A DNA stretch of 60,745 bases. It comes from an uncultured virus (IMG/VR IMGVR_UViG_3300042870_000870) (lineage: Duplodnaviria > Heunggongvirae > Uroviricota > Caudoviricetes). Below, piece after piece: positions 5,938 through 60,745 of this stretch. The stretch lies in the IMG/VR virus record IMGVR_UViG_3300042870_000870; one strand, given 5' to 3'. The notes under the pieces were generated by a model. It did not search any database. It saw nothing but the letters and a program-made list of their open reading frames with translations, and had not been told where the DNA came from. The first letter of the stretch is position 1, and every line of letters starts with the position of its first letter. The position numbers were made by a program, and so were the translations under genes.

Positions 5938-6004
5938 ATGAGTCAATTTATTGAATCTTTTACTAAGTCAATAAACCCACCACAAAAAACACCAATCAAA
6001 AATT

Positions 6005-28435: not shown

Positions 28436-28500
28436 CTCAAAGGGGTTTCATTAATTGGAACCCCTTTTTTATTTTAAAAAATTATACATATATTTGTAAT

Positions 28501-34303: not shown

Positions 34304-34687
34304 TTAATCCTCGTATATGTCGGGATTTTCTTTTGAGAACATTTTTATGTATTGACCGGCCTTAGCATTTGCCTCATCTTCTATCTCACCTCCAATATCG
34401 GGAGGTCTAACCTCTAATCTACCCTGTTCAAATTGTTTGTGGTGAACTAATTCATGTGCCACACTCCTCATGATGTCAACAAGTGCTCTGTTTTTACCAT
34501 AAACCTTAACTACCTTGTTTTCTTTGGTGTAATCGTAATTTGCGGTGGTTTTAAGACCATCTCTATTGCTTTTAATAACAATGGTCGGAATAGAATCCAA
34601 TTCCAATTGATTTTTAACGAATTTAACAAACCCGTTTAATTTTTCCTTATTGATATCGCTTAAAAGTGCCATAGTAATAAATATCAC
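34304..34687 (-). CDS. HExxH metallopeptidase-like protein
   Basis: AHELVHHKQ...EDEANA. Confidence 0.65.
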   Translation of the reverse strand: MIFITMALLSDINKEKLNGFVKFVKNQLELDSIPTIVIKSNRDGLKTTANYDYTKENKVVKVYGKNRALVDIMRSVAHELVHHKQFEQGRLEVRPPDIGGEIEDEANAKAGQYIKMFSKENPDIYED

Positions 34688-34932
34688 AAAGTTTTTTCTT
34701 CGGGTAAATCGTTTTCTTTTAGATATTGTTCAATTAATTCAATAATGAAATCCTCATCAATATCCTCCAAATCCACCTCGTCAATTATTTCTGGTGAGTA
34801 GTACTTAACCTCGTCATACCCTAATTGTAAGACCCTGTAAAAAGTGTCGCCGTCCTCATCCGTTGAGAATTCAACAGACAACCTTCTATGGTCCTCATCG
34901 TAATAGTATTCAATTATATTCATGGTAAACAT
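34684..34932 (-). CDS. Acidic hypothetical protein
   Basis: ORF only. Confidence 0.6.
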   Translation of the reverse strand: MFTMNIIEYYYDEDHRRLSVEFSTDEDGDTFYRVLQLGYDEVKYYSPEIIDEVDLEDIDEDFIIELIEQYLKENDLPEEKTL

Positions 34933-35352: not shown

Positions 35353-35649
35353 ATGGAGATGACAATTAATTTTTTACTACAAACAATGAGGGTTCTACAT
35401 GTCGGTAATTACGATGAGGAAGAACTATCAATGGTGTATAACTTCATAACTTCTGTTACCGATGACGTATTAAATGACTATAAAGATACATGTACAATTT
35501 TATCATATGAAAATGATTTAGAGTTATATATGGAGATTTTAGACATTTGTATTGTTATTTTTGAAGATAGGGAAGAATATGAAAAATGTCAAAAATTAAA
35601 AGATAAAAAAGAAGAAGTAATAAAAATAATAGAAAATAAAACAATTTAA
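35353..35649 (+). CDS. Hypothetical protein with UVR-like motif
   Basis: EEYEKCQKLKD. Confidence 0.65.
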   Translation: MEMTINFLLQTMRVLHVGNYDEEELSMVYNFITSVTDDVLNDYKDTCTILSYENDLELYMEILDICIVIFEDREEYEKCQKLKDKKEEVIKIIENKTI

Positions 35650-45718: not shown

Positions 45719-45788
45719 AATAAATCAAACTCAATAAAACTACGGATTCATACACAATAAAAGGTATTTATGGTATATTTATAATATC

Positions 45789-47522
45789 ATGGAAATAGAA
45801 AAACTAATATCGAATATTGTTAACGAAGCGGTTAAAAAAAGTGACCTTGTTACGTTTTTATCAAACAAATTTAGTTCGGAATCACCCAAGTTCAATTCAT
45901 TGGACCCCGAAACAAAATCAACTCACACATTTGCGATAGTTGAGGCGTACAAAAATATAAAATCTAAACTTAGAGCATCCAATCCCGCCACATTTAATTT
46001 TTTACAAAGACATGATGGTAATCACGGGTCAAATTTAATTACAATTGAACAATTAAATAAAATTACTGAAATTCCATTTAAACAATTGATGGAATTATTA
46101 TCAACAGTTGGTGACTTTAAACCATTGGTATCGGACGACGCATCAAAAGTTGGTGGAGATGATACTGAAGTTAAATTAATTAAGACATTTGGAACAAGTG
46201 GTAATAAACCTACCGAAGGTAAGGTTACCACATCTAAAGAGATGTGGGGTAGTCCTAATAATGCAATAATAAATGAAGACGGTTTTAGAGTATATCATAT
46301 AAAAGACCAAACCCAAGCAATACGAATGGGTTATTATTACCAATCATTACATATAAAACAATATAGAGATTTAAAACTTGAAGTTAGACCCCCGTGGAAC
46401 GTAACATTTAGAAAAGGGTTTCAAGAAATGAATACAGTAGGTTCCTCAATTATTTCTCACGGATTCAACAAATGGTCAAGTTTTAGAACGGCACATGAGG
46501 TATCAATCTATTTCGTAATTGATGAAAGTAGAAATCCATTTGAGGATGTACTAACTAACGGTAAATATTTCATGTCAGTTATTGAAGTGATTAATGACGG
46601 TGGTTACCAATTAAGGTCTATGTTAAATGACGGGTCATTATTACTTAATTGGAAGAAGTTAGTTACTCTATATCCAAAATTAGAGGGCCATGAAGACCAA
46701 TTCGTTTACCATGATTTTACACCAGAGGAATTAATTGAACCAACGGAAATTGATACATCGTTCAACGAATATCCTGAATCTAAAAATTATATTGGTAAAC
46801 AATTACCTGACGTTCAAATTGCTTGGTTTAAAGAAGGTAATGACATTACAAAGGCATTAACATGGAGAACTATGACAACTCCTGTTAGATTGGCGTACAT
46901 AGATACTATAACATCTTACAACATTTTTGAAAAAATTTCTAATGTAGATTTAATGAATGAGATGTTAAAAGGTGTTGATTATTCTGGAAAGGGAGGTAAA
47001 AGATTTGAGACAATATTAAATGATAAAATGATTAGTGTTGGTAAAAAAGGTATATCATTCTTAACTCACTATTATTATCAAACTAAATATGATGTTGAAT
47101 TTATCGGTAAAAGAGTTCCAACGAGATTTGTTTATAGCACCATAAGTAAAGACCCATTAATAAACGGATTAATGGGTATATTTGACACAAAAACAGGTAA
47201 ATGGTTTACAGGTCCAACCGGAATAAGATACGATGCTAGATATAAAATAACAGAAAGATTTTTAAAAAAGGATGTTAATAAGAAAACATATTTAATATTT
47301 GAGTTTACATCTGTTATACCTTTTATAGATGATAAAGGAAATAAAGTTCCAACAAGCGTAGGTACTAAATTTTATGTAGTAAACGACGAACCCTTTGTTC
47401 CAGATAAAACTCACCATGGTTATTTCATTGGTGAATCATTATATAGAGATTTTGTTGTAAAATTTATAGAATCGGAAACCCCCGAAATATTTAAAGCACC
47501 TAAAACAAGTATAGCACAATAG
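45789..47522 (+). CDS. Large hypothetical protein with IVNEA leader
   Basis: 577 aa ORF; TATTTATA at 45776. Confidence 0.7.
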   Translation: MEIEKLISNIVNEAVKKSDLVTFLSNKFSSESPKFNSLDPETKSTHTFAIVEAYKNIKSKLRASNPATFNFLQRHDGNHGSNLITIEQLNKITEIPFKQLMELLSTVGDFKPLVSDDASKVGGDDTEVKLIKTFGTSGNKPTEGKVTTSKEMWGSPNNAIINEDGFRVYHIKDQTQAIRMGYYYQSLHIKQYRDLKLEVRPPWNVTFRKGFQEMNTVGSSIISHGFNKWSSFRTAHEVSIYFVIDESRNPFEDVLTNGKYFMSVIEVINDGGYQLRSMLNDGSLLLNWKKLVTLYPKLEGHEDQFVYHDFTPEELIEPTEIDTSFNEYPESKNYIGKQLPDVQIAWFKEGNDITKALTWRTMTTPVRLAYIDTITSYNIFEKISNVDLMNEMLKGVDYSGKGGKRFETILNDKMISVGKKGISFLTHYYYQTKYDVEFIGKRVPTRFVYSTISKDPLINGLMGIFDTKTGKWFTGPTGIRYDARYKITERFLKKDVNKKTYLIFEFTSVIPFIDDKGNKVPTSVGTKFYVVNDEPFVPDKTHHGYFIGESLYRDFVVKFIESETPEIFKAPKTSIAQ

Positions 47523-47554
47523 AAATAAAAAAAGGGACATTTAGTCCCTTTTTT

Positions 47555-48397
47555 TTATGATAGTAATGAATAGTATTCTTTAAAGTGTTTAATTCTATCG
47601 ACTAAACCGATAGTTCCACCATTTACTCTTTTTGTAATTGAAGTTACAACCGCATCGGTTGCTCCACCATCCGCCATTTTGTGTAAACCATTTTTAGAAA
47701 AGAACCAAGCCGCAGATAATAATGCGTAATCTGTTGCCACCTTTTCTGGATTTGCAGTCATATCTTCATTTATAGATTTACCAAACGCTGTGTAGTTTTC
47801 TTTTCCTGTTAATTGAATATATCCACGTCCACAGAATTTTGAACCTTCACCTGATGATTCGGGACCATTACCCATTCTGTTTCCGTAAACTTTATTTGCA
47901 ATTTTTACAGGTTGTCTCTCGTATGGTTTTGCTGAGGCTTCTGTTGGAAAGTACTTTTTGAATGTACCATTTAAACCTTTTGCTGAGTAATTTAAATTTT
48001 CTTTTGTAGCTCTAAATCCTCCTGATTCGTGACCACATTGTGCCAAGAAGTGTGCCAACCTTAACGGTGTATTAATTTGGAATTTAGCCGCAGTGTCGGG
48101 TATCATTTTAATAACCGAATCGGGAATGTGACCCTTTAATTTCTCTAATTTTAAACCACCAACTGAAGCAACTGGTGCCGGTTCAGTTATAATTGTTGGA
48201 GCACTTACAACACCTTCAGAGAATAACTTACCCCAAGTGCCATCACCAACAACCCCGTCTGCCGTTAAACCATTTGCAGATTGCCACGATTTAACCGCAG
48301 CTTCTGTTTTTGGTCCAAATTTACCTATTGGGTCAACACCCAATTTAACCTGGAGTTTTTTTACATCTTCTCCTTCAGATCCTAATTTTAATAACAT
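47555..48397 (-). CDS. Endolysin: PG-binding domain plus GH19 lysozyme
   Basis: LKLGSEGEDVKKLQ...ADGVVGDGT; AHFLAQCGHESGG, GRGYIQLTGKENY and TKRVNGG motifs. Confidence 0.92.
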   Translation of the reverse strand: MLLKLGSEGEDVKKLQVKLGVDPIGKFGPKTEAAVKSWQSANGLTADGVVGDGTWGKLFSEGVVSAPTIITEPAPVASVGGLKLEKLKGHIPDSVIKMIPDTAAKFQINTPLRLAHFLAQCGHESGGFRATKENLNYSAKGLNGTFKKYFPTEASAKPYERQPVKIANKVYGNRMGNGPESSGEGSKFCGRGYIQLTGKENYTAFGKSINEDMTANPEKVATDYALLSAAWFFSKNGLHKMADGGATDAVVTSITKRVNGGTIGLVDRIKHFKEYYSLLS

Positions 48398-48444
48398 ATC
48401 AATATTTTTTTTGTGTTTATTATATAAATACTCTTTGAGTTTTT

Positions 48445-48726
48445 TTAATTATGTGTACCACATGTTGAACATACAAAAGACCCTTTTCTACCATCTTTCA
48501 TGACGGTTATTGTATGTTTCTTTTTACAATTTTTGCAAGAAGCCCATTCAGGTTGGCCTGATTTTGATTTTGGATTATTATCATGTCCACATTCGTGACA
48601 TACGTATTTATTCTTTCCTCCTTCCGATTCTTTCCATTTCCAACCACATTGTTTACATTTTATGGTTTTGTCGGTTTCTTCGTCCACAATACGTTTTAAT
48701 TGTGATTCAGTTATAATAATTTTCAT
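48445..48726 (-). CDS. Leader-motif protein with double zinc ribbon
   Basis: MKIIITESQLKRIVDEE and four CxxC pairs. Confidence 0.7.
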   Translation of the reverse strand: MKIIITESQLKRIVDEETDKTIKCKQCGWKWKESEGGKNKYVCHECGHDNNPKSKSGQPEWASCKNCKKKHTITVMKDGRKGSFVCSTCGTHN

Positions 48727-48738
48727 AACTATAAATAG

Positions 48739-48957
48739 TTAGGTATGTTGTGTTTTTCTAATGTCGTTTTTTAAAAACACAGAAAAATCCCCATTAACCT
48801 TTTCTTTAAAATTATGAAGTTCCATATAATGTTTATTACACAGGTAAGTTGTGAATGAGTACATATTGAGGTCGTGGTCCAATACCTTATATGTTTCTTT
48901 AAATTCCACATCTCTGTGACATCCAATAAATTGACATTCGTGTTTTTCCATATGCAT
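48739..48957 (-). CDS. Small Cys/His hypothetical protein
   Basis: CQFIGC...LCNKH; start position uncertain. Confidence 0.45.
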   Translation of the reverse strand: MHMEKHECQFIGCHRDVEFKETYKVLDHDLNMYSFTTYLCNKHYMELHNFKEKVNGDFSVFLKNDIRKTQHT

Positions 48958-48988
48958 AAAAAAACCCTCCATTATGAGGGTTTTTAAA

Positions 48989-50194
48989 TTATAAAAATCT
49001 TTTAAAGTTATTTTTAATATTTTTGATAGATTCATTCATTAAAGAATCTTGTTCCTCCACCTCTTCAGGTTTTGTAACTTTGACTTTTTCTTTGTCTTTA
49101 TCTTCCAATTGGTCAATATCAAATTTTTCTTCTTCATTTGTGTCACCAGCGTATGTATGACGACGTTCCATAATGGTCTTTAATTGTGACTCACTAATTT
49201 TTATTTTCTTGCTCATTTTTTTATTTGTTTTATTTTCTGTTAATTCTTTATCTTTAAATGTTTTACTATATTCAGTACTATCAATCATACCACCTCTTTC
49301 TTTAACCCAAGTTAATGCGACATTTGTATCATCTGTATAGGTTATATTACCCTTTGCAAATGATTTTATTTTATCACAAAGTTGTTTAAACATTTTATGA
49401 TATTCCTTCCATTGTCTTAATTCAGGTTCATTTAATTCTCTCCTCTCTGTTATTTTATCAAGTGTTAGATAGTCCGACAACCATTTGTGTTCAGAACTAC
49501 CGTAACCGTAACTGCTAACGTTGTTAATAGTTAATAGAACATCTTTAACTTCAAATTGCTGTATTAATATTTCATTATAACTACTTCCTCTTTCTCTCGT
49601 TACAAACTTTTCAATCTCATCTCTATGTCGTTTGATAAAATCTTCCACAATTTTACTATATAGCGCCACATATCTAATTGTGGCATCTCTATCACTTAAT
49701 AAAGGTTTAGGATTGAATTTATTAAAACTTGAAATTGATTCATTAAATTCATTAGTTAAACTTGTGGGAATAACATTATAGTATTGTAACCATCTTCTAC
49801 CCCACTCATCAGGAATACTCATAATATCAGAGGTACCCTTAAATAAAGCGGTACCAATCAATTCGTATATTATTCCACCTTCGGTTTGAATTCCCCCCAT
49901 AGACCTTAATTGGCTACTACTCATGTAGGTAAATGAAGACAATGGCTTTTTTTGGTTAGGACCCACTAAACTCGCTATCTGATCAATACGATTAACCGCA
50001 CTGATATGAAATGTTTTCATTTTTAAATCACCAAAAAGAGTTTTACCAATTGATGGGGTTATTCTAATATTTTTCTCACCGATGTGTCTCAAAGTATCCC
50101 TCAAATGGGCAACAGAAAATTTACCTTCGGTATCCTCTAATTGTAATTCCCTCACTATACTTTTATATTCTTCTTCGGATATTGTAAACGACAT
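48989..50194 (-). CDS. Leader-motif protein, possibly with an internal start at 49216
   Basis: N-terminal ISEEEYKSIV and an internal MSKKIKISESQLKTIME. Confidence 0.7.
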   Translation of the reverse strand: MSFTISEEEYKSIVRELQLEDTEGKFSVAHLRDTLRHIGEKNIRITPSIGKTLFGDLKMKTFHISAVNRIDQIASLVGPNQKKPLSSFTYMSSSQLRSMGGIQTEGGIIYELIGTALFKGTSDIMSIPDEWGRRWLQYYNVIPTSLTNEFNESISSFNKFNPKPLLSDRDATIRYVALYSKIVEDFIKRHRDEIEKFVTRERGSSYNEILIQQFEVKDVLLTINNVSSYGYGSSEHKWLSDYLTLDKITERRELNEPELRQWKEYHKMFKQLCDKIKSFAKGNITYTDDTNVALTWVKERGGMIDSTEYSKTFKDKELTENKTNKKMSKKIKISESQLKTIMERRHTYAGDTNEEEKFDIDQLEDKDKEKVKVTKPEEVEEQDSLMNESIKNIKNNFKRFL

Positions 50195-50399
50195 AATGTT
50201 TTTGTATACTATAAATACTTAATTTTTATAAAAAAGGGATATGAGTAGCGAATTCATATCCCCACGGGATTAGTAACTAGTCCCGGCCCTAAGTCGAGTC
50301 TTCAAACTCGAGGTATCTTTAGTTTAAACTATAATCCTTTTATACCAATAAATACCTATGAGGCATAAAAAAACCCCACGATGTAGGGTTTTAATTTTC

Positions 50400-50669
50400 T
50401 TACCAAGTATCGTTGAGATGAAAGTTATCTCGAGCGATTACCATGTGTTTAAGATGTTTTACCATCTCATCATCGGCTCGTCTAACCGCCTCTCCAAGTT
50501 TATCTGCCAATACCGCTTGGGTGAAGTCTCCTCCGTACCAAACTTCGTCTCTTGTCATTAACATGGATATCATTACATCTTTTACGTGTGATGATAGTTC
50601 CCATCGATAATCGACACATTTTTGGTCAACTAAATCTTGATACTGAGGTCGTGGGTCATTTACTAACAT
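50400..50669 (-). CDS. Hypothetical protein
   Basis: GGDFTQAVLADKL..A..RAD; host-type promoter upstream. Confidence 0.65.
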   Translation of the reverse strand: MLVNDPRPQYQDLVDQKCVDYRWELSSHVKDVMISMLMTRDEVWYGGDFTQAVLADKLGEAVRRADDEMVKHLKHMVIARDNFHLNDTW

Positions 50670-50728
50670 ATTACATATCTTTTGGTGAAATACAAATATA
50701 GGAATAATAAATTAAACCACCAAATAAA

Positions 50729-51376
50729 TTAAATGGTATTGAAGAAATTATCTAACTCTTCTTTCTCTTCAGGATTTAGACTACCTGATATCATCCCCAT
50801 AAGTCCTTGTAATTGTTTGAAATATAGTTTGTTACCAAAGAATCGTTTTGTGTGTGTACCAACATCCTCATAACCAAAAGTAACACTACCATCATCATTT
50901 ACCTTAGTTTCAGCGTACCCAAATTCAGATGGGGGTATCATTGGGAATAACTTCTTTACCAATATGGCAGGTGGGGTTAAAAATCCAAATTTTCTTGTTA
51001 ACATGTCAATAATTTCATCTGTTGCCATTCCCCAAAATGGTGCTGCTAAATCACTTATCTCCTTGCCACCCAAAAAAATACTTCTAGGGTCGCCAGCTGA
51101 ACCTGTTAATTTATAATCACCACTAGTTTGTTTACGAGCAGCAATAAATCCTTTGTTCTTTATACCAAAGAATGTCCATTGACTCGCTTTATTTTGAAAC
51201 TTACTCTCAGTCCAAGAAGAACCTGTACTTTTTTCATATGAAGTTTTAAATAATTCATATGCGGTATGTCTTTCATCTGGTGTTAAATCATAAAACGAGA
51301 ACATTTCTTCATTAAGAAGTCCACATTCTTTCATTAGTATATTAACATATTGCTCCTCTGTGATTTGTACTTTCAT
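50729..51376 (-). CDS. Leader-motif hypothetical protein
   Basis: MKVQITEEQYVNIL...LLNEE. Confidence 0.65.
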   Translation of the reverse strand: MKVQITEEQYVNILMKECGLLNEEMFSFYDLTPDERHTAYELFKTSYEKSTGSSWTESKFQNKASQWTFFGIKNKGFIAARKQTSGDYKLTGSAGDPRSIFLGGKEISDLAAPFWGMATDEIIDMLTRKFGFLTPPAILVKKLFPMIPPSEFGYAETKVNDDGSVTFGYEDVGTHTKRFFGNKLYFKQLQGLMGMISGSLNPEEKEELDNFFNTI

Positions 51377-51389
51377 GTATATAAATGTT

Positions 51390-51701
51390 TTACTTATGTT
51401 TGATGATTAACTCACCCAACACCTCTAATTTTCCCATTAATCTTTGAAACCCAACTTGGTCCATATCGGATGATAATCCCTTTAAAAGTGTCTTAAATTC
51501 CTTTTTGGCCTCATCCAAATTAAACTTACCTTCCGAAGCGTTCTTATAATATGGTAACTTAACCACAAAGTGATGGTACGTTAACATTGACGGACCACCT
51601 TTTTCATGTGCAGAATCTGCAATTTTACTTGCTCCACCCATTCTTTTTTCGGCAAACGCATCAAATGATTTAGATTCGTTTAGTAAATCGTATAATTTCA
51701 T
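51390..51701 (-). CDS. Hypothetical protein with MKLYDLLNE leader
   Basis: ORF; TATTTATA at 51705. Confidence 0.65.
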   Translation of the reverse strand: MKLYDLLNESKSFDAFAEKRMGGASKIADSAHEKGGPSMLTYHHFVVKLPYYKNASEGKFNLDEAKKEFKTLLKGLSSDMDQVGFQRLMGKLEVLGELIIKHK

Positions 51702-51887
51702 GTATATAAATACTTACATTTTAATCTTAATGATTAAAATTAACATAATGATGTAAGGTCTTACTAAATAACCTAACGCAAATCCAAATAATAATTTTTC
51801 CATATCATAATATATGAAAAATAATGGACATTACCAAACAAAAAAACCCTCCATAGGAGGGTTTTTTTATAATATAATTTATATGAA

Positions 51888-52421
51888 TTAACCTATGTCA
51901 ACTCTTACAGTCTCCGCCATATTAGATTGAACACCAGATCCAGCAGATGCGAATTGAGGTGTTTTATCAATTGTTGTACAAGCTGCAGTCGTTTTAACTA
52001 ATTCGGTAAATGGAGGACAATATAACGTTCCTAAACCTTTACCACCTTCACCCACGGCTACAAGTCCATTAGGTGCTTTACAATCAAATCTTAAAACTTG
52101 AATTGCTCCCATACTATCCTGAGGAGTTGCAGCACCACCTGTAGAAGTTACGAATGCCAAATCTTTTACATAAAAAAAGAAAACGCCCACACTATTGGTA
52201 GATGCTCCAATATTTGTAACATTCACAATGTGACTTTTCTGAGTTTTACCCATATCCAAGTATAATTGAACATTCTTACCGACAAATGTTTTGCTTAACT
52301 CAGTTGCTTTTTGTTTATTTACATCACCCGCAGCAGCAGGGTCTGCAGTTTGTTCTTTAACGACCTTACTGATGTATTGTTTCAATTCAGCTTCTGTAAG
52401 TCTTATAACGTTTTTCTTCAT
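51888..52421 (-). CDS. Leader-motif hypothetical protein
   Basis: MKKNVIRLTEAELKQYISKVVKEQ. Confidence 0.7.
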   Translation of the reverse strand: MKKNVIRLTEAELKQYISKVVKEQTADPAAAGDVNKQKATELSKTFVGKNVQLYLDMGKTQKSHIVNVTNIGASTNSVGVFFFYVKDLAFVTSTGGAATPQDSMGAIQVLRFDCKAPNGLVAVGEGGKGLGTLYCPPFTELVKTTAACTTIDKTPQFASAGSGVQSNMAETVRVDIG

Positions 52422-52493
52422 TTTTTAATTTGTTTAGTAATAAATATGTTATGTTTTAAAAAAAATCCTTATGGGTGGGTCAAAAAGAGAAAT

Positions 52494-53084
52494 TTATTTT
52501 TTAGTTGCAATTTGACCTAACGCATCTTCAAGTGATTCAAGTGCTCTGTTTGCCGTTTGTTTCATTCCTTTTAATAGTGCAACACCTTGTGGTTTAACTT
52601 GTTTTGCTGCAATAATCTCATCAATATACTTGCTAAGTCTATATGTACTTGTATACAAATAATCCAAACCAATTTGTTTATCTTTCCCTACGGGAACTAA
52701 TCCTTGTTTAATCGAATCAATTTGTTGATTTAAAAAGGCTACGTTATCGTATTGAGATACTCCAGGTACTTTAAAACTTTGTAATTTTTTATAGTCGTTT
52801 ATGAATATCACCATATTATCCTCAAAAGGTCTTAACGCTCCTTTTACAAAATCCGACATTGCAACCGTACCATATTTTGTTATTAATGATTTCACCGCTG
52901 GAGACGCTATAACATCACTCATAAGTGCGCCTCGTCTTAATACTTTAACCTCAGGTGAAATAAATCCTTTCACAAGACGCATAAAAGGATTTTGTTCATT
53001 CAATGGTTTACCATACCCGTATTCAGAATGTTGTTCCAATATTTGTTCTCTCTCTTTGTCTGTTAAATTAAAATTCTTATACAT
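52494..53084 (-). CDS. Leader-motif hypothetical protein
   Basis: FNLTDKEREQILEQH...LNEQ. Confidence 0.7.
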   Translation of the reverse strand: MYKNFNLTDKEREQILEQHSEYGYGKPLNEQNPFMRLVKGFISPEVKVLRRGALMSDVIASPAVKSLITKYGTVAMSDFVKGALRPFEDNMVIFINDYKKLQSFKVPGVSQYDNVAFLNQQIDSIKQGLVPVGKDKQIGLDYLYTSTYRLSKYIDEIIAAKQVKPQGVALLKGMKQTANRALESLEDALGQIATKK

Positions 53085-53179
53085 TATAAATTCGGTTTAA
53101 TATTATATAAATATTAGATGTTCACAAAAAAAATCCCGGCGGACGAAACCCAAACCTGATACCGGCATATGAGGTTCAA

Positions 53180-53413
53180 TTATATGGGAATAACACAAAG
53201 ACGTTCAAATTCGTCCTCCCTTAATGCAAATGTTTGTTCGTGGTGACCATTAAGAGATTTAAGATGAACCAAATACAGACCCAATCTACTTTTCTCCACA
53301 TCAATGTTTTGTCCGGGGATAAACCCCAAATCCATAAGACGAAGTCTTAAACATGGTTTACAATTATAGCAGGGATTGTTTTCAACTACATCCGATATCT
53401 GGTAATGTGTCAT
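53180..53413 (-). CDS. FeoA-domain protein
   Basis: LRLRLMDLGFIPGQNIDV...FALREDE is the FeoA SH3-like signature. Confidence 0.75.
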   Translation of the reverse strand: MTHYQISDVVENNPCYNCKPCLRLRLMDLGFIPGQNIDVEKSRLGLYLVHLKSLNGHHEQTFALREDEFERLCVIPI

Positions 53414-54144
53414 TATGGTTGTTTATCGTACCACTTTTTTAATGAACTCATATAACCAGCGGTCATATGGTCCTTAATGTTCTTTCCGGTGAACATGGAT
53501 TTAATGTAGTTCCATGCACGTTCCCAGTCAATCATAAATTTCTTTATATTACCCTCGTGGTCGATTCGTAACATGTAATTGACGTGATAGTACCCAATGG
53601 ATGGAGAATGTGTCACCACGTCGTTATTATGGACGATTCTGAGGGTTTTAATCTTGCGGGTGTCATAGTTGTTCTTAAAGGTCTTATTACCGACCCTTGG
53701 ACTTCCTATGGTACAACATTCGATGGTGGTATCTGTGAACACGTGGGAAAGGTTATAAGCACACAACGTAGCAACAGCAGCACCCAAACTATGACCACAC
53801 ACAACAATCTTATTATACCCACTCATCTTGGTAATATCTTTAAGGATTACGTTCTTTACAGCATCCCAAGAAGACTTGAAACCAATATGTACCTTATCAC
53901 CTTCGTTGATGAAAGGAACCTTATCGATGGACACATCATTCTGAGCATCCTTTTTACTTGACGTTCCCCTGAAGACCACATAGAGTGACTTCCCTTTCAT
54001 GGCAACAAACGCTTGGGTATCTGATTTCTTATCATCAACCCACTTAACGGATTTAAGTCCGAGGGAGTTGAAGTCAATGTCTTTTTGGTCTTTATATACA
54101 ACGTCACATAATTGAACGTTATAGATTACTTCGTCTTTATTCAT
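53413..54144 (-). CDS. Class 3 lipase
   Basis: VVFRGT, VHIGF, GHSLGAAVA, GSPRVGN and NDVV motifs. Probable start is MNKDE at 54144. Confidence 0.9.
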   Translation of the reverse strand: MNKDEVIYNVQLCDVVYKDQKDIDFNSLGLKSVKWVDDKKSDTQAFVAMKGKSLYVVFRGTSSKKDAQNDVSIDKVPFINEGDKVHIGFKSSWDAVKNVILKDITKMSGYNKIVVCGHSLGAAVATLCAYNLSHVFTDTTIECCTIGSPRVGNKTFKNNYDTRKIKTLRIVHNNDVVTHSPSIGYYHVNYMLRIDHEGNIKKFMIDWERAWNYIKSMFTGKNIKDHMTAGYMSSLKKWYDKQP

Positions 54145-54148
54145 AGTA

Positions 54149-54388
54149 TTATTGTCTTGATGGGTATACACCCTGTACACAGATTATGTATCTCATACCA
54201 ACGATCGGTGATTGTAACTTCGGTAATGAGAATTGTGTTTGGTTGTCACCACCATACGTAATTCCCAATAATGAATACAATGCTTCGTTTTGTGTAATTG
54301 GTAATGATTGTCCATTACATTCCATGTATCCTTGGGGAATGAAATTCCCGGCAAATAATTTAATCGACCCTATTAATTCGTCTTCCAT
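54149..54388 (-). CDS. Stand-alone phage tail-collar domain protein
   Basis: IGSIKLFAGNFIPQGYMECNGQSL..N.ALYSLLG.TYGGD...F.LP; YIICVQGVYP. Confidence 0.85.
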   Translation of the reverse strand: MEDELIGSIKLFAGNFIPQGYMECNGQSLPITQNEALYSLLGITYGGDNQTQFSLPKLQSPIVGMRYIICVQGVYPSRQ

Positions 54389-54442
54389 AGTATATAAATA
54401 TTATTGATTACGTATCTATGTATGTTTTCTTGTAGGTTCATA

Positions 54443-54994
54443 TTAATCGTCAAAACATTTTATGTTTCCGTCTTTATCAATACCGAACTGCCATTCATGT
54501 ACATCACCACCCAATACCCCACGAAGACAATAAATAAATTTGTTCATAAAATCTAACATTTCGGTATCATGTTTTTCTAACAACTCAACCGATTTACTAT
54601 ACGCCTTCTCAAATCTCTCCTTAGATTTATTAACATACCACATAAAGAATTTATCAATATTCAGACTTTCTAATGTATCTTCCAATTTTCTAAAATTAGA
54701 TAAAAATTTCTTTGTATCAAGTCTTTCCATAATTGCCACACCACTATACCATTCATCTCCATTATAATGTTTTACTTTAAAAATTTTTACATATATATCA
54801 GGATATTTTTCACTTCGTTCTTTTTCATCCATCAACATCCCATATGGACCAATCTTTAAAACCAAATCTGAATTTATTGTTGATCGATACGCAATTTTTT
54901 CTTGTCCTCTACCCAAGGCTCTTTTTTTCTTTGTTTTGATTTCATCCAACCCCATCACCTGTTTAATCCTATGTATATTCTCTTGTAGGTTCAT
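54443..54994 (-). CDS. Protein-kinase-like fold protein with MNLQENI leader
   Basis: LGRGQEKIAY, VLK, IMERL, GDVHEWQFG and KCFD motifs. Confidence 0.65.
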   Translation of the reverse strand: MNLQENIHRIKQVMGLDEIKTKKKRALGRGQEKIAYRSTINSDLVLKIGPYGMLMDEKERSEKYPDIYVKIFKVKHYNGDEWYSGVAIMERLDTKKFLSNFRKLEDTLESLNIDKFFMWYVNKSKERFEKAYSKSVELLEKHDTEMLDFMNKFIYCLRGVLGGDVHEWQFGIDKDGNIKCFDD

Positions 54995-55501
54995 TATACT
55001 TTTGTCAAATTAATTTCAACACCACTACCCACTTTTATTTCTGCACTTGACCCCTTATTATTATGTAATTGAACAAGGGCAGCATTTAGTTTATCCACAG
55101 GTACTCTTATTTGTAACCACCCGTCTTGTGACAAGGCACGACTTGATATTAACTTTTTCATTATTCCTGCTACCGTATTATTCTTTGGCATTACTTCACC
55201 TATCAATTCCCCACTCCCCCTATTTCTTCTAACATTTCTAAGTGTAATGTCAAAATTAATGAACCCATAAGAACCAGAAAGTTTATAGGAGAATTTTGAG
55301 TTAGGGATTTCATTCCCATCCTCACCTCTTCTTGTTAAGTAAATGATGTTTGTATTGTTGGTCCCACCGATTGGATTATACCCCATATTTGTTTTTTTTT
55401 GTTAATGTATCAGTCGTGGGAAACATGGATATAAATCCCAATTTAGGTTGCTCCATTAACATCATCTCTTTTATTCTTGATATATTCTCTTGTAGGTTCA
55501 T
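54994..55501 (-). pseudogene. MNLQENI-leader gene split by a frameshift at an A9 tract
   Basis: The ORF from the ATG at 55501 stops after 41 aa. Removing one A at 55392-55400 joins it to 54994..55386. Confidence 0.6.
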
Positions 55502-55671
55502 TATCTAAAAAATGAGAAACCCTTTTTACGGTTATTAGTTATTATCTCACCAATCTTCTGTTTCATTAGGTCCTCGTTTTTCTCAGGAGTTATTTTGGAC
55601 TTTACCCATTTCTCTTCCATGGCCTTACCGGCCAATTTCATTGCGTTGATTTTATCTGTGTGTTTGCTCAT
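55501..55671 (-). CDS. Small basic hypothetical protein
   Basis: MSKHTDKINAMK...; TATTTATA at 55675. Confidence 0.55.
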   Translation of the reverse strand: MSKHTDKINAMKLAGKAMEEKWVKSKITPEKNEDLMKQKIGEIITNNRKKGFSFFR

Positions 55672-55743
55672 ATGTATAAATATTACCAAAAAATTCTGGA
55701 AATTTTTTTTTCACTTTTGAACAATAAAACCTGATTTAAAGAT

Positions 55744-56853
55744 TTAATCGGTTTTCCACCTTCTTTGGTTCTTAGATTGTTCGGACGGAGTTGACCACTT
55801 ACAATTTGATGGTTCATACATTCCATTTGAGTCTATTCTATCAATACTATGTTTTGAGGTCGGTCTTGGACCCATATCCATACAAAAATTAACAAATCCC
55901 TGTCCATTCGGTTCCAACCATCTATCACAAACAATAATACCCCTACCACCATATAGATAGTAGTTATCATTTTCTTTTCTGTAACAACGTCTCTTCATAT
56001 TCTTATAACGAGCGTACATCAGTTCTTTCTCTTTATCATTACTGGTAAATAAACCATTTCTATATGACTTTTCTTTTCGAAGACATCCACAGGATTTTGT
56101 AAATGGAAGAGTTGATCTCCTAATATCTTTAATTGTTCCGCATTCACACTTCACAGTAAAAACCATACTATCACCAGTACCGACTTCAGATATGATGGAT
56201 AATCTATGATGTTTATACCCCACTTTATACTTTCTCTCAGTTGGGGGTTTCTTATTTAATTTTTCTAATTCACGTTTACGTTTATTTTCTTCTATTCTAT
56301 CTAACCGTAATTGTTTATTATGTATTTTTTCTTGTCTACCTAATTCCCACTCCTCTTGCATCTTTATATAACCACATCCACAATCTTTTATTGATTTTTT
56401 AGTTGAGGTTAATTTATTACTAACAACCTCTCTTGTTCCACCACATTCACATTGACATAAGAAAACCCTATTTTTCTCCCCTCCACTAGTAACACGATAA
56501 CCCACAAATTCTAAAACAGTTAACTTATGATACACATTACCCACTTCTATATGTTTAAGTTTCTTTCTTTCTATATTATTTCTGTCTAATACATCAATAA
56601 CCCTTTCACCACCAATACCTAATTCTATCCCTGTTTTTTCGGCGGTACCTAATTCATAGTATTTTGAGATAATGAATTCATCTGTGTATCTTTTTAATTC
56701 CCCAATAACGGGTATATTATGAGAACGAACAATCTTTAATACAGTGGGACTTGATACACCGAATTCTAATCCTGTCTTTACGGCATTACCTGTTTTCTTA
56801 TAACACTCTATAAGTTTTTCTTTATCTATTCTGTTAGTCTTAATATTTTTCAT
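55744..56853 (-). mobile_element. Free-standing HNH homing endonuclease with Zn-binding repeats
   Basis: Two CxCxCG/CECG...(D/S)CGC repeats; YGGRGIIVCDRW and HSIDRIDSNGMYEPSNCKW motifs. Confidence 0.85.
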
Positions 56854-56939
56854 AAAATTTCTGGAAAATTTTTATTGCTAATATACGAAAAAAAGTCAAC
56901 TTTCCAAAAAAATTCTGGAAAAATCCGGAACGCGGCATT

Positions 56940-57040
56940 GACCCCCCTTTTAGACCCCCCCAAAAACCCTTAATTAAGGAGGGATACCGGTAGGGGGGAG
57001 GGGGTACCCTTTATGGGGGGTAGTGGTACACCCCCATCTT
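56940..57040. other. C-run/G-run symmetric element at the strand switch (candidate terminus or origin)
   Basis: C6 and C7 runs, CCTTAATTAAGG palindrome, then G6, G5 and G6 runs. Confidence 0.4.
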
Positions 57041-57105
57041 ATTTAGAATGAAAATAAATTACGATAGTGTTAGGTATTATGGTAATAATATATTAATTTA
57101 GGGGT

Positions 57106-57420
57106 ATGGAAATCACACACCAAGAGTACTTGACCATGAAGGAAATCGTAGGGAGATACGAGAGAACTTCTAACAACCCAAACTTGAAACTTCCTAAGGA
57201 GTTATTAGACAAGGAGGTTTGGAAACTTGAATCTCATAAAGTGTTAGGAACATCGGTACGTTTGTACAATATCCTGACCAACATGGGAATCACTTCGGTG
57301 AAGGACATGATTGAACTTTCAATCAACGACTTCACAAGACAACGTCACTTCGGTAATAAGTGTCTCAAAGAACTTGAAGACATTTACCGACACAACGGAA
57401 TGAAGTTCGTGGAAAAGTAA
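57106..57420 (+). CDS. RNA polymerase alpha-CTD-like protein
   Basis: SVRLYNILTNMGITSVKDMI...RHFGNKCLKEL resembles the alphaCTD pattern SVRxxNxL..GI....NFGKKSLxE. Confidence 0.75.
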   Translation: MEITHQEYLTMKEIVGRYERTSNNPNLKLPKELLDKEVWKLESHKVLGTSVRLYNILTNMGITSVKDMIELSINDFTRQRHFGNKCLKELEDIYRHNGMKFVEK

Positions 57421-57661
57421 TCCACCCACAGAAAGAAAGACCTCAACGAAAGTTGGGGTTTTTTTATGTCCACACGTAACGGTGGGATCACCAGAACAGT
57501 ACAGGGAAGTATAAAACTGGAAACACCAGTGTACCAGGGTAAACCCTTTCCAGTTTTGTATTATTTTAAATCCCACAGGGAAATCTGGGAGTAAAAAAAG
57601 ATTTGGTAAAACAAAAATCATTTTATATCTTCGTTCTATCAATCACCAAAAACAAAGTAAC

Positions 57662-58006
57662 TTGAAAAAAACATTCTACCTTATTACCGAAAAGAATTAC
57701 AACAACGACAACACATTAGATGTCGGTACATTCATTGAAAAGATTATTCTATCAACGGAGTCGGAAGACTTTAAAGAATTTTCAAAAGAAAGTCCAAAGG
57801 GAACATTAAAAGAAACCTTCGACAATTACGAAAATCATTTTATGTTTTACTTCGATGATGTATTAAGAGAACAAAGACAAAACTCACATTTTGAGGAATA
57901 TCAAATTTATAAACATTTATTGTTGGATGAAGAACAATACGAAATGTTGACAAAACAAATGAAAGACATTCCGACAAGAAAAGTGTCAGTAAACGAATTA
58001 GTTTAG
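57662..58006 (+). CDS. Early hypothetical protein (Ala-free)
   Basis: Cassette gene with TTG start; terminator at 58030-58055. Confidence 0.65.
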   Translation: MKKTFYLITEKNYNNDNTLDVGTFIEKIILSTESEDFKEFSKESPKGTLKETFDNYENHFMFYFDDVLREQRQNSHFEEYQIYKHLLLDEEQYEMLTKQMKDIPTRKVSVNELV

Positions 58007-58204
58007 GTTAGTACCCCCACTAACTTGGAACCTCAACGAAAGTTGGGGTTTTTTTATGTCCCGTCTGTACCGAATTCCCCGGGGAACTGGGCAAGGTATA
58101 AAACTGGAAAGGAAAATAATAAAAAAAAATATGTATAAAGTATTGTATATCAACTGACTTGTGTTATATTTGTGTATTGAATTTCACTTTAACCCACACA
58201 CCAA

Positions 58205-58417
58205 ATGGAAAGATTTTTCGATACCTTCGTTCCCACCTTCGTTTTACTTGTTGTTGTCCTTTTCTTAATCCTTACCCTACCACTTCATATTTGGTGGACG
58301 TGGAGAGGTTGGGACATCAAGGGTATGGTTTGGTACTACTCCCTCACGGAGAGTCAACACGTCTCGTGGAAACGTCTCAAAAAATGGAGATACATCCGAG
58401 AACAAAAGGTCGAGTAG
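58205..58417 (+). CDS. Early small membrane protein (Ala-free)
   Basis: Cassette gene after TATATTTG. Confidence 0.7.
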   Translation: MERFFDTFVPTFVLLVVVLFLILTLPLHIWWTWRGWDIKGMVWYYSLTESQHVSWKRLKKWRYIREQKVE

Positions 58418-58609
58418 ACCTTTTTTTTTGTCCCGAACATAAATGTATAAAACTGGAAACACCAGTGTACCAGGTAAACCCTTTCCAGTTTTATCCGTTG
58501 TCCAGTCCGTCGGTAAATTCTGGAATAAAAAAAAATTAAAAAAAGTTTGTTGGATATTAAAATAATAGTTGTATATTTGATTATTCATTTACACCTAAAT
58601 AAAATTAAA

Positions 58610-58861
58610 ATGACAAAAGAACAATTACAATTAGAAGTTAACCTACACGGAAGTAGGGTAATATCAAATCGTTTGGTTAATTCTCGAATTAATCGAATTG
58701 TTGGACTTGATATGAATGACCTTCCCGACACCTCCGACCTTTGTGATATTGTCGACGAACTTGACGAACTATTACAAAGTAAAGATTACACATTGGAAAA
58801 TATTAAAAACATTTTAGATGGTATTAATATGGAATTTATTCAAGATATGGTTTTTGGTTAA
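58610..58861 (+). CDS. Early hypothetical protein (Ala-free)
   Basis: MTKEQLQL start after TATATTTG; terminator at 58883-58913. Confidence 0.75.
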   Translation: MTKEQLQLEVNLHGSRVISNRLVNSRINRIVGLDMNDLPDTSDLCDIVDELDELLQSKDYTLENIKNILDGINMEFIQDMVFG

Positions 58862-59071
58862 AATAGGTTAAAGTAAATTGGAAACCCTCGGGATTATGTC
58901 TCGGGGGTTTTTTGTGTTTAAAAAAGTTCAAAAAAAATTTGGAAGTTCAAAAATCCATATCGAACCTGAACTTGTATAAAACTGGAAATGAAAATAAAGT
59001 TGGATAAGTTTGTAGTATATTAAATGAATTGTATTATATTTGATTATTCATTCACACCAAATAAAAACAAA

Positions 59072-59377
59072 ATGGAAATCACCAAAATGAAAAGTCACCA
59101 AGGAAATGTCGTTCCAAATCAATACGATATCAGAATTGGGAACCGAAGAATTTTTAAATCTTATGAGAGTGTCATCGTAATGATTAGAAACGAAAAAGTT
59201 TACTTAGACACAAAGTATTGGAAATATTCAAATACCACGGGAAGGTATCGGAATATGTTTTTAGGAGAAACACAAAAAGAGACCGAAGTTAAAATTAAAT
59301 CGGGAGAATATGTGTTAACCGACTTACAAGGAGAATTAGATAAAGAAGAATTCAAGTTCTTTAAGAATAAAAAATAA
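59072..59377 (+). CDS. Early hypothetical protein (Ala-free)
   Basis: MEITKMKS start; FKSYES and YSNTTGRYRNMFL; terminator at 59395-59422. Confidence 0.8.
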   Translation: MEITKMKSHQGNVVPNQYDIRIGNRRIFKSYESVIVMIRNEKVYLDTKYWKYSNTTGRYRNMFLGETQKETEVKIKSGEYVLTDLQGELDKEEFKFFKNKK

Positions 59378-59556
59378 AAGTTCCCCCACTTTTGAACCCT
59401 CGATTTTATCGGGGGTTTTTTTATGTCCATACTTTTTTCGTCCCGGGGAACACAGGGATGTATAAAACTGGAAATGAAAATAAATTTGGATTAATTGATT
59501 TATATTACGGAAGTTTTATTATATTTGATTATTCATTCACACCAAAAGAAAAAACA

Positions 59557-59802
59557 ATGAAAAAGTTTCAAGAAAATGTTCAGTCACTCGGGGTAATCTT
59601 AATGTTAGTATTTCCCATTTGTATTTTCCTTACAATGTTATGTTCGGACTATCGTACAGAAGAAGGATATAATCAATACGAAGTTATTTCAAGTTTCCTT
59701 GTGAATTGGTATACATTCATTACCTTACCCATCGGAATGTTATTTTATAGTGTCGGTTGGTTTAAAGTTCCACAAAGAAGAAAAAGACCCACCACTTTTT
59801 AA
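59557..59802 (+). CDS. Early two-TM membrane protein (Ala-free)
   Basis: MKKFQENV start; terminator at 59819-59851. Confidence 0.75.
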   Translation: MKKFQENVQSLGVILMLVFPICIFLTMLCSDYRTEEGYNQYEVISSFLVNWYTFITLPIGMLFYSVGWFKVPQRRKRPTTF

Positions 59803-59974
59803 AGTAGTTAGATATTCGAAACCCTCGGACTTTTAGTTCGGGGGTTTTTTTATGTTCGGACGAAATTAACCCAGAAGAATACAGGGATGTATAAAACTGG
59901 AAATTAAATTTATTTTTGTATATCAAAATAATAGTCGTATATTTACTTATTCATTCAACCAAAAGAAAATTAAA

Positions 59975-60145
59975 ATGGAAAAAACACAAAGAGAATTGAC
60001 CTACAACGAATGGGTTAAGGAGTACAAAGTAAGTTCAAGTTATGTGGAACCGACAAAATACTATCAAGGAAATCAAGGTAGTGGATTTGAACCTATGGTA
60101 ATGGAAACCAAACTACAAAGATTTTTTAGGTTGTTGGGATTTTAA
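59975..60145 (+). CDS. Early 56 aa protein (Ala-free), absent from the ORF track
   Basis: MEKTQRELTYNEWVKEYKVSSSYVEPTKYYQG... in cassette position; terminator at 60165-60192. Confidence 0.7.
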   Translation: MEKTQRELTYNEWVKEYKVSSSYVEPTKYYQGNQGSGFEPMVMETKLQRFFRLLGF

Positions 60146-60325
60146 AGATTGTAAATTTATTCAGACCCTTCACGAAAGTGAGGGGTTTTTTTATGTTCAT
60201 ACTTTTCGTCCCGGGAGAATACAGGGATGTATAAAACTGGAAAGGAAAATAAATGTTGGGGAATGTGTTGTATATTAAATGGGTTGTGTTATATTTGGGT
60301 ATTGATTCACCAAAACAAAATCATT

Positions 60326-60508
60326 ATGTCAAATCTACAAGTTACCAAGTACATGTTAGGAATGATTGGAAGTTCCGTAGGAATGATTTCACATCTGTTC
60401 TTAATGATTGAAACATCGGAAGTAATTCATTTCGTTTGTTTCTTATTGTGGTTTGTTATTTTAAGTTGTTGTTATTTTATGTTGGGTAAGAAACTAAAAA
60501 GATTTTAA
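60326..60508 (+). CDS. Early two-TM membrane protein (Ala-free)
   Basis: MSNLQVTK start; terminator at 60534-60567. Confidence 0.7.
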   Translation: MSNLQVTKYMLGMIGSSVGMISHLFLMIETSEVIHFVCFLLWFVILSCCYFMLGKKLKRF

Positions 60509-60688
60509 ATTTGTTTCATAGGTTGATGATTCGAAACCCTCGGAGATTTTCTTCGGGGGTTTTTTTTGTCATACACATTTCTTCCCGGGAGAATATGGGA
60601 ATGTATAAAACTGGAAATGAAATTTATATTTGTATATTAAAATTATATTCGTATATTTGATTATTCATTTACACCAAAAGAAAAAACT

Positions 60689-60745
60689 ATGAACACGATT
60701 ATCGAAATGATTACAAGTCAAGACAACTTATTAGAAAGTACCCTC
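60689..60745 (+). CDS. Next cassette gene, truncated by the window edge
   Basis: MNTIIEMITSQDNLLESTL after TATATTTG. Confidence 0.6.
   Translation, partial: MNTIIEMITSQDNLLESTL

Follow-up and report, generated by a model that had tools for sequence, protein, structure and literature searches.

Target avoidance in early DNA is a known phage strategy. In T5, EcoRI sites within the first-step-transfer (FST) region are cleaved, while those in other parts of the genome resist restriction (bioRxiv 10.1101/866236). In Murciavirus, Type I motifs are reported to matter in the leading region alone, and the phage escapes if this region is free of them (PMC12455610). The leading regions of conjugative plasmids were described in a 2026 study as 'not consistently depleted' in 4-8-bp palindromes (PMC11541004; PMC13478746). 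Here we analyze a 60,745-nt stretch of an uncultured Caudoviricetes virus (IMG/VR IMGVR_UViG_3300042870_000870), referred to in its full length as the window, which ends in a block of small, putatively early genes that is practically free of the dinucleotide GC (GpC). The block spans at least 13.8 kb (~14 kb), partly beyond the window, and encodes alanine-free proteins. Full-text literature searches listed no paper that describes a phage region free of GpC or of alanine.

Extent of the GpC-free zone and depletion beyond it

The last GC upstream of the zone lies at 56935, and the part of the zone inside the window (56937-60745; 3,809 nt, A 1382, T 1161, G 700, C 566; 33% G+C) contains a single GpC, at 58091-58092, compared with 104.0 expected from base composition. 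This count has a Poisson probability P(<=1 | 104) of 7e-44, and the minimum in 1,000 mononucleotide shuffles was 78. An initial annotation, made by reading the sequence without database searches, had reported exactly this one GC against some 80-100 expected, and the computed count revealed none that had been overlooked. It had also called the other dinucleotides of G and C common, which agrees with observed/expected ratios (O/E) of 0.96 for CG (100 copies), 1.62 for GG (208) and 1.76 for CC (148); AC is raised to 1.30 in the zone. The target itself is present elsewhere in the genome, with 1,003 GpC in the remaining 56,936 nt of the window.

The start of the zone had been placed exactly by the initial annotation, whereas its end at 60745 is that of the window: contigs of near-identical strains continue the zone for at least 10 kb more. 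Contig L121, with 100% identity to the window end over a 149-nt overlap, has 4 GpC in 7,494 nt, and L122, 99.5% identical over 191 nt, has 4 in 11,938 nt; the four are common to both contigs and form two GCGC pairs in a single intergenic spacer. L122 is also 95% identical to the window over another 683 nt and has an inserted cassette block of ~1 kb. For counting, the window part was joined to L122 1939-11938 into a composite zone of 13,809 nt, beyond which the far end of the zone lies. The composite holds 5 GpC where 372 are expected (P ~1e-151), at a CpG O/E of 1.13, and its 29 open reading frames (ORFs) encode 2,892 residues without one alanine, including a 281-residue member of a conserved protein family. 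The eight complete ORFs in the window account for 669 of these residues, close to the 670 estimated previously.

The zone was recovered in 16 DNA runs, all of them labelled as lake or freshwater metagenomes and each containing at least 0.92 of its words, and is carried by three independent contig sets, which rules out a sequencing or assembly artefact. Low G+C content is likewise ruled out as the cause, given 33% G+C and normal CpG.

The view of the initial annotation that GC is used freely elsewhere in the window proved wrong. Over the whole window the GpC O/E is 0.63, and in the 72 ORFs outside the zone (15,991 codons) the share of NGC among NGC and NGT codons is 0.07 for AGC, 0.08 for CGC, 0.03 for GGC and 0.04 for TGC, compared with 0.10-0.38 for control pairs (NNC among NNC and NNT). 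GpC formed across codon junctions, by a codon-final G and a codon-initial C, has an O/E of 0.35. Synonymous avoidance is thus about five-fold and extends to all genes; in a second tally of 77 ORFs, the NGC share was 0.049-0.054 across four classes of alanine content, with alanine-poor and alanine-rich genes alike. The first two bases of alanine codons make up 730 of the 1,003 GpC outside the zone, and a gene such as 8155-9711 (14% alanine, 79 GpC) looks normal because of its alanine only. Four small ORFs outside the zone (13929-14270, 35353-35649, 34684-34932 and 48739-49035) have no alanine and 0-1 GpC, so alanine-free proteins are not restricted to the zone.

Even against this background the zone is a class apart. 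At the rates found outside it (57 NGC codons and 78 junctional GpC in 15,991 codons), its 2,892 codons predict ~24 non-alanine GpC and ~132 alanine codons, and they hold none of either. The purge affects all three codon phases and the non-coding DNA, and an orthologue of the DUF932 protein encoded in the zone has lost all of its 15-25 alanines, in line with the earlier proposal that the constraint acts on the nucleic acid and not on the amino acid. Causes at the level of translation, such as loss of tRNA-Ala or avoidance of alanine as such, are ruled out, as NGC codons, junctions and non-coding DNA are purged too.

When GpC ratios were computed over the window and its relatives, much as the initial annotation had proposed, the depletion was found to be genome-wide and clade-wide, with the zone as its extreme. 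The DUF932 protein retrieved 33 IMG/VR loci, with a GpC O/E of 0.16-0.60 in 18, 0.80-0.88 in three and 0.94-1.50 in 12. In the protein tree the depleted loci fall in one group (support 90/86), which also holds two intermediate loci, one of them sister to strongly depleted ones (96/92). Judging from these sequences, GpC depletion is a trait of one jumbo-phage clade, graded and reversible. The DUF932 orthologue of the distant locus L154 has 25 alanines and 62 GpC; both are reduced to zero in L122, L125, L128 and L129, and to one each in L143, and the conserved alanine columns are occupied by Val, Gly, Ser, Thr or Lys.

Three long relatives share the genome-wide pattern: G002 (311 kb; GpC O/E 0.51, NGC share 0.046, junctional O/E 0.27), G003 (287 kb; 0.56, 0.039, 0.33) and G004 (269 kb; 0.60, 0.042, 0.40). 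The corresponding values for the non-depleted G008 (251 kb) are 0.88, 0.181 and 0.88. G004 has a near-free zone of its own, with 20 GpC in 10.3 kb (254.1-264.4 kb), eight of them in a single ORF. The stretch of G002 that corresponds to the zone is just mildly more depleted than the rest of that genome. Among 34 candidate genes common to G002-G004 and not found in G008, 30 lie in one block at 65-95 kb, most simply a part missing from G008. Host mimicry is ruled out by the rpoB region of a Chitinophagaceae metagenome-assembled genome (MAG), binned with a contig of this phage type, which has a GpC O/E of 1.08.

Cassette organization, gene content and host

The zone is organized as at least 24 self-contained cassettes in a row, with all genes on the plus strand. 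The 24 control regions of the composite share one design, in which an intrinsic terminator is followed by a spacer of 17-103 nt, a control motif, a TAnnTTT(G/A) box, a leader and the start codon of one or two small ORFs. We take TAnnTTTG to be the -7 element of Bacteroidota sigma-A. The control motif, (A/G)TGTATAAAACTGGAAA (short form AAAACTGGAAA), has nine matches in the window, all of them in the zone, compared with 0.08 expected by chance. In the window the boxes lie 45-125 nt downstream of the motif and ~30-40 nt upstream of the start codon, and a conserved leader, ATTATTCATTCACACC..., connects box and start codon. Over all control regions the motif-to-box distance is 45-183 nt and forms classes of 45-48, 57-59, 67-68 and 102-125 nt. 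The first three classes are spaced by roughly one turn of the helix, suggesting that a protein binds to a single face of the DNA, and the motif itself is suggestive of a putative operator or activator site. Some motifs are paired as 13-nt inverted pairs, and some promoters add a third half-site (ATTCTGGAAA). The layout recurs in relatives, where the motif takes a variant form (TTTACCGGGAT in G004, TTTACTGGGG in L127-L129). In the viral_contigs collection a 15-mer form of the motif gave 117 single-copy matches, which were taken as chance and not used, and neither a 23-mer nor the last 57 nt of the window had an exact match there.

The terminator scan detected 8 terminator-like sites on the plus strand, and 10 on both strands compared with 3.5 in shuffled sequences. 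Their stems are indeed built from C-runs and G-runs, as first noted by eye. A 32-nt terminator at 57440-57471 is an exact repeat of 58030-58061, and two independent assemblies break at it: one contig of run X1, and an IMG/VR contig of 297,651 bp that is identical to window 45747-57469 and ends at exactly this repeat. Strains vary by whole cassettes. A DNA contig of run X1 leaves the window sequence at 58589, inside the conserved leader, and goes on into the cassette seen at L122 ~10447, and L122 683-1747 holds ~1 kb of extra cassettes relative to window 60555-60637. The conserved promoter and leader modules seem, from these junctions, to serve as recombination points.

The few GpC tolerated in the zones of this phage and its relatives recur as GCGCTG(T) words beside the control motif, here flanking GATCATGATC. 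Such sites were seen at L122 3100-3140, at G004 264404-264450 and 267085-267132, and at L128 5142-5210; they may be a site that needs GC, e.g. for a regulator, nicking or modification.

At the 5' edge of the zone is a conserved non-coding element (Table 1) with C-runs and G-runs around a TTAATTAA/TATATAA core. G004 has a matching element at the same edge of its own GpC-poor zone (254058-254114), likewise unique in its sequence; the two phages that have it in common encode DUF932 proteins just 53% identical. Its predicted fold is no better than that of shuffled sequences (z -0.27).

The first product of the zone resembles a free-standing C-terminal domain (CTD) of the RNA polymerase alpha subunit. 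It matches PF03118 with E 3.4e-9 and alpha-subunit chains in PDB with a best E of 2.8e-4, which bears out the earlier description of an alanine-free alpha-CTD-like protein. Further products of the zone match DUF932 (E 9.5e-25), DUF4314 (1.6e-12) and DUF3846 (3.2e-7), and 10 of the 21 ORFs of L122 have a net charge of -14 to -30. A 115-nt part of ORF 5 shows 73-78% identity to a Pelagibacter phage gene. Most zone ORFs had no family match. Six of the eight complete ORFs in the window are covered by contigs of three RNA libraries, which give no timing and may include DNA carry-over; one of these contigs (X17 record 14) spans 57091-57355 in ORF 1. This coverage is compatible with expression.

Table 1. 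Coordinates of the GpC-free zone, its genes and control elements, and the adjoining gene
Feature	Position	Strand	Basis or remark
HNH endonuclease gene	55744-56853	-	adjoins zone; 5 GpC vs 26.1 expected; 0.8% Ala
GpC-free zone, window part; continues past window end	56937-60745	+	1 GpC vs 104; L121, L122
Conserved C-run/G-run boundary element	56942-57020	+	unique in window; zone 5' edge
ORF 1, 104 aa, free-standing RNA polymerase alpha-CTD-like protein, 0 Ala	57106-57420	+	PF03118
Intrinsic terminators after each ORF	57436-60566, e.g. 58027-58052, 58404-58424, 58880-58912, 59394-59418	+	terminator scan
Further intrinsic terminators	59818-59848, 60163-60188, 60533-60563	+	terminator scan; stems without GpC
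Control motif, nine copies	57507, 58094, 58443, 58482(-), 58972, 59458, 59887, 60227, 60601 (57507-60617)		
ORF 2, 114 aa, acidic (net charge -8), 0 Ala, no family match	57662-58006	+	
Sole GpC of the zone inside the window; lies in a 42-nt spacer that separates a terminator from the next AAAACTGGAA motif	58091-58092	.	
TAnnTTT(G/A) -7 boxes	58165, 58572, 59035, 59520, 59938, 60290, 60652 (58165-60659)	+	sequence
ORF 3, 70 aa, hydrophobic, 0 Ala	58205-58417	+	
ORF 4, 83 aa, acidic (net charge -9), 0 Ala	58610-58861	+	RNA-library contigs X18 record 22, X19 record 32
ORF 5, 101 aa, phrog_21575, 0 Ala	59072-59377	+	
ORF 6, 81 aa, hydrophobic, 0 Ala	59557-59802	+	
ORF 7, 56 aa, 0 Ala	59975-60145	+	
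ORF 8, 60 aa, hydrophobic, 0 Ala	60326-60508	+	
ORF 9, start, cut by window end	60689-60745	+	whole (49 aa) in L122 1882-2031

The window belongs to a freshwater jumbo phage whose genome measures some 300 kb or more. Encoded in the window are a ClpB-like ATPase, Hsp20, SmpB, glycosyltransferases, an endolysin, tail-related proteins and a non-specific endonuclease (PF01223, 42705-43307), together with 14 tRNA genes, a transfer-messenger RNA (tmRNA; Rfam score 76.9 bits) and a GOLLD RNA. No close relative was found in the GenBank phage collection, where the matches were the 115 nt of Pelagibacter phages and tRNA-like fragments; the nearest related record compared, G001, is a 57.8-kb fragment without the zone. 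The host probably belongs to the Bacteroidota, on three weak points: the TAnnTTTG boxes; the best cellular matches of the ClpB-like protein, mostly Bacteroidota at ~50-55% identity; and a copy with 79% identity on a small contig that had been placed in the bin of a Chitinophagaceae MAG.

The adjoining HNH gene is partly depleted of GpC, as had been observed before. Copies with 74% identity occur in another neighbourhood (L002 and L003, mutually identical), so the gene is probably mobile. At 5509-7685, 26177-26929 and 28030-28938 the window carries a set for RNA repair and ribosome rescue, consisting of an AAA_33 kinase, a T4 Rnl1-like RNA ligase, a cREC cyclic-phosphate-processing domain, a metallophosphoesterase, tmRNA and SmpB, and this gene content suggests heavy RNA cleavage during infection. 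The GOLLD RNA (RF02032, 316 bits, E 7.8e-90) is full-length and lies at 25637-26041 (+) within the tRNA island. Two tRNA genes missed by ARAGORN were found by Rfam at 20243-20314 and 21801-21873 (+), with anticodon loops for Asn (GUU, degenerate T-arm) and Asp (GUC), respectively. None of the 14 window tRNA genes has a stop-reading (suppressor) anticodon, and the ORFs are intact under code 11, so that nothing points to stop-codon recoding in this phage. Long ORFs in the standard code cover 0.80-0.90 of G002-G004. In G008 they cover only 0.50, and 0.78 with TGA read through, so this non-depleted relative may use a recoded stop.

Possible causes of the GpC purge

The explanation we prefer, at a probability of roughly 45%, is elimination of a target at the DNA level in the first-expressed cassettes. 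The zone would be an early-expression arsenal of autonomous cassettes with host-type promoters, from each of which selection would have stripped every GpC between motif and terminator, along with most CTAG, GATC and CATG. A GpC-recognizing, DNA-attacking activity in the infected cell would thus be unable to destroy the templates before their products act. Candidates for this activity are a nuclease and a modification-dependent system that acts on marks set by a GpC methylase. The activity would also tax all GpC of the genome, which would account for the clade-wide five-fold synonymous avoidance and the low alanine content, and outside the zone the purge would halt at alanine codons that the proteins cannot give up. 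We infer early timing, from the cassette anatomy, as well as a DNA level of action and an agent that reads GpC. The gene content of the zone (acidic proteins, DUF932, DUF3846, DUF4314) fits an anti-defence role.

As GC is its own reverse complement, strand asymmetry cannot separate a DNA-level from an RNA-level cause. The DNA level was weighed above the RNA level on account of three other features: a palindrome signature, purged promoters and independence from transcription context. The 2,041 nt between motifs and -7 boxes contain no GpC, compared with 22.9 expected. Relative to Markov expectation, the palindromes CTAG (0 vs 9.5), GATC (5 vs 23.8) and CATG (7 vs 27.4) are rare in the zone, while GTAC (45 vs 51 expected), TCGA and ACGT are not avoided. 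GATC is erased from G002 (0 vs 986 expected) and G004 (0 vs 805) and nearly so from G008 (5 vs 731), and 34 copies remain in the window compared with 171 expected. CCGG occurs once in G008 (191 expected), and TTGCAA is missing from G002 (60 expected). Intergenic GpC in G002-G004 has an O/E of 0.55 in 43 divergent, 0.55 in 30 convergent and 0.51 in 171 tandem regions; in G008 these ratios are 0.79-0.89.

The initial annotation had proposed a restriction-type cause, and by analogy the erasure of GATC, the rare palindromes and the context-independence speak in its favour. It had named evasion of GC-containing restriction sites (GGCC, GCGC, AGCT, TGCA, GCNGC) or of a GpC-directed defence or modification, and the first of these fared worse. 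Codons AGC, CGC, GGC and TGC are avoided alike, the CG-containing palindromes TCGA and ACGT are not, and depletion is as strong in the non-palindromic contexts AGCA, AGCC and AGCG as in AGCT or GGCC. Palindromic 4-mers are therefore unlikely to be the sole cause, and a single agent that reads GpC itself would be the more economical assumption.

Several points weigh against target elimination at the DNA level. To our knowledge, no nuclease or defence system with bare GpC specificity has been described. All 5 GpC of the composite zone, together with 4 of its 5 GATC and 7 of its 9 CCGG, lie in the 981 nt (7% of the zone) of spacers between terminator and motif. The zone as a DNA molecule would thus still be cleavable, and the exemption of the spacers calls for the extra assumption that the integrity of each expression cassette is what counts. 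Synonymous sites (NGC ~1/5 of control, junctional O/E 0.27-0.40) are purged deeper than intergenic DNA (0.51-0.55), which a per-site cost on DNA alone does not predict. The set for RNA repair and ribosome rescue hints at a conflict at the RNA level. Finally, first injection of the zone, or a terminal position, as proposed in the initial annotation, is at best conjectural: the sequences are all contigs, and the GpC-poorest stretch of G002 and of G003 is internal to the contig. In many relatives contig ends do occur near the zone, on both its sides; this clustering is read as assembly breakage at the repeated promoter and terminator modules. In run X1 the word depth of zone contigs is ~24-35 and that of other contigs 14-19, which is not a copy number and at most a lead to a terminal repeat.

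Some of these points would be accounted for by an endoribonuclease (RNase) that cuts at GC early in infection, so that GC-free early transcripts survive, with just partial relief for later genes. Candidates are an abortive-infection toxin or HEPN-type enzyme of the host and a host-shutoff RNase of the phage. Specificity for two to three bases is usual for RNases and not for DNA endonucleases; MqsR, for example, cuts at GCU. The spacers that retain the residual GpC are the DNA least likely to be transcribed. In the zones of relatives, L128 has 0 GpC in 2,730 nt of coding DNA and 8 in 1,170 nt of non-coding DNA, and L127 has 1 and 13, respectively. A T4 Rnl1-like ligase, the AAA_33 kinase, the cREC domain, SmpB and tmRNA would suit cleaved RNAs, and the deeper purge of synonymous sites would follow as well. 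An RNase would not, however, act on the DNA from motif to promoter, which is purged upstream of the presumed transcription starts, and the terminator stems lack GpC although their RNA is double-stranded. The co-avoided CTAG, GATC and CATG are palindromes, as is typical of targets of DNA enzymes, and divergent intergenic regions are depleted like convergent and tandem ones. Alanine-rich late genes moreover retain many GpC, as in 8155-9711. On balance we regard an RNase as unlikely.

Rated somewhat lower still is self-immunity, in which an early or virion-borne nuclease of the phage cuts or nicks host DNA at GpC and the early array has to be target-free. Such an enzyme would explain the signal of a bare dinucleotide, and for chlorella viruses frequent cutters and nickases with 2-4-base sites are known. 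The GpC methylase M.CviPI also exists in chlorella viruses (PMC8256090; bioRxiv 2023.12.21.572611), and the A1 protein of T5 has been proposed to attack sites absent from FST DNA (bioRxiv 10.1101/866236). The window carries the PF01223 endonuclease and HNH genes, and seven of the nine related records searched have no C5 methylase for self-protection. No candidate nuclease specific for GpC was identified. Thousands of GpC persist in the remainder of the genome (3,988 in the ORFs of G004), which would need to be outside the cell or shielded while the enzyme acts, through a hypothetical two-step injection or compartment. The residual GpC of the spacers would also be cut.

An improbable alternative is that the zone is free of a modification. 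Cytosines in GpC would be methylated or hypermodified by an enzyme of the phage, of a co-resident element or of the host, and the mark would be harmful in early templates, by blocking the host RNA polymerase or inviting methyl-dependent restriction. GpC-specific C5 methylases, TET oxidation and glycosylation are documented in phages, and the same reports raise a possible 'GpC-specific endonuclease activity' (PMC8256090; bioRxiv 2023.12.21.572611). Several glycosyltransferases are encoded in the window, and ThyA-like ORFs, present in four of five relatives, are unusually long (391-430 aa) in the depleted G002-G004. Genes for C5 methylases (PF00145) were detected in two of four relatives, G003 and G005, and not in G002 (93% complete) or G004, which are equally depleted; none was found among the 84 window ORFs scanned or in the five distant records G008-G012. 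TGT/DpdA was found in none of five related records; Tet_JBP (PF12851) was likewise found in none of five, a weak negative given that the control search was also blank in 14 genomes. A protective mark would in any case favour keeping GpC and not losing it genome-wide. GpC hypermodification by the phage itself is thus not supported, and the long ThyA-like ORFs may point to another base modification.

Mutational decay, with GpC hypermutable in this lineage and lost where protein selection is weak, as for CpG in vertebrates, is in keeping with the uniform synonymous avoidance over the four alanine classes and the raised AC in the zone, yet it is very improbable, because an O/E of 0.01 over 13.8 kb demands a rate excess of more than 100-fold, the zone's coding DNA has none of the ~24 non-alanine GpC predicted from the genome's own equilibrium, alanine columns of DUF932 changed to Gly or Ser (17 cells, transversions) as often as to Val or Thr (16 cells), the purge goes deeper at synonymous sites than in intergenic DNA, and a close relative within the depleted group (L133) has an O/E of 0.80.

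Comparison with known systems

Target elimination in early cassettes would place this phage beside T5 and Murciavirus, in that an early region is free of a target found elsewhere in the genome and, in the FST and leading regions of those phages, encodes functions that then protect the rest (bioRxiv 10.1101/866236; PMC12455610). In those phages a single 6-bp or bipartite site is avoided and experiments have demonstrated first entry, whereas the present zone is known from contigs alone. What appears to be new here is a dinucleotide as the target, an absolute purge over at least 13.8 kb, an alanine-free protein set and a weaker, synonymous avoidance through the genome and the clade. Because all four alanine codons contain GpC, avoidance of a two-base word rewrites proteins, and at least 29 natural proteins apparently function without this amino acid.

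The complete loss of a short palindrome, GATC, in G002 and G004 resembles whole-genome site elimination, for which Staphylococcus phage K, free of GATC, is an example. Four-base sites can always be removed synonymously. GpC, in contrast, starts all four alanine codons and is not synonymously removable, so its full removal is regional and protein-changing.

DUF932, DUF3846 and DUF4314 are all known from the leading regions of conjugative plasmids. Like the zone, these regions carry anti-defence genes with promoters of their own, and there they are the first-entering DNA; DUF932 itself occurs neither in the two reports on such regions (PMC11541004; PMC13478746) nor in any paper listed by a further literature search. 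Unlike their palindrome content, the GpC depletion described here is absolute. The pattern thus marks, by sequence alone, what is probably the early anti-defence arsenal of an uncultured jumbo-phage clade, and a GpC-free signal is simple enough to be sought across all viral metagenomes.

Genome-wide loss of one dinucleotide is also seen in vertebrate RNA viruses, whose avoidance of CpG is attributed to the immune sensor ZAP (PMC8844275). That case differs in being eukaryotic, partial, at the RNA level and without loss of an amino acid. We know of no CpG-free blocks among those viruses and of no prokaryotic counterpart of this sensing.

A parallel in the choice of target is with the phages that encode GpC-specific C5 methylases, TET enzymes and glycosyltransferases and so act on this very dinucleotide (Burke et al. 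2021, PMC8256090; bioRxiv 2023.12.21.572611). Such phages keep and decorate GpC, while the present clade deletes it. By this analogy, GpC may be a contested mark. A tentative extension, which we hold to be doubtful, is that freshwater Bacteroidota or their phages possess a system that reads bare GpC, to which phages respond by decorating every GpC or by deleting it, and that this system would be a prokaryotic counterpart of dinucleotide-sensing immunity of the ZAP/CpG kind. If so, deletion would in the first-expressed 14 kb go as far as an alanine-free proteome, and the predicted GpC-reading activity would give a reason for the GpC specificity of cytosine hypermodification in the phages that decorate the dinucleotide.

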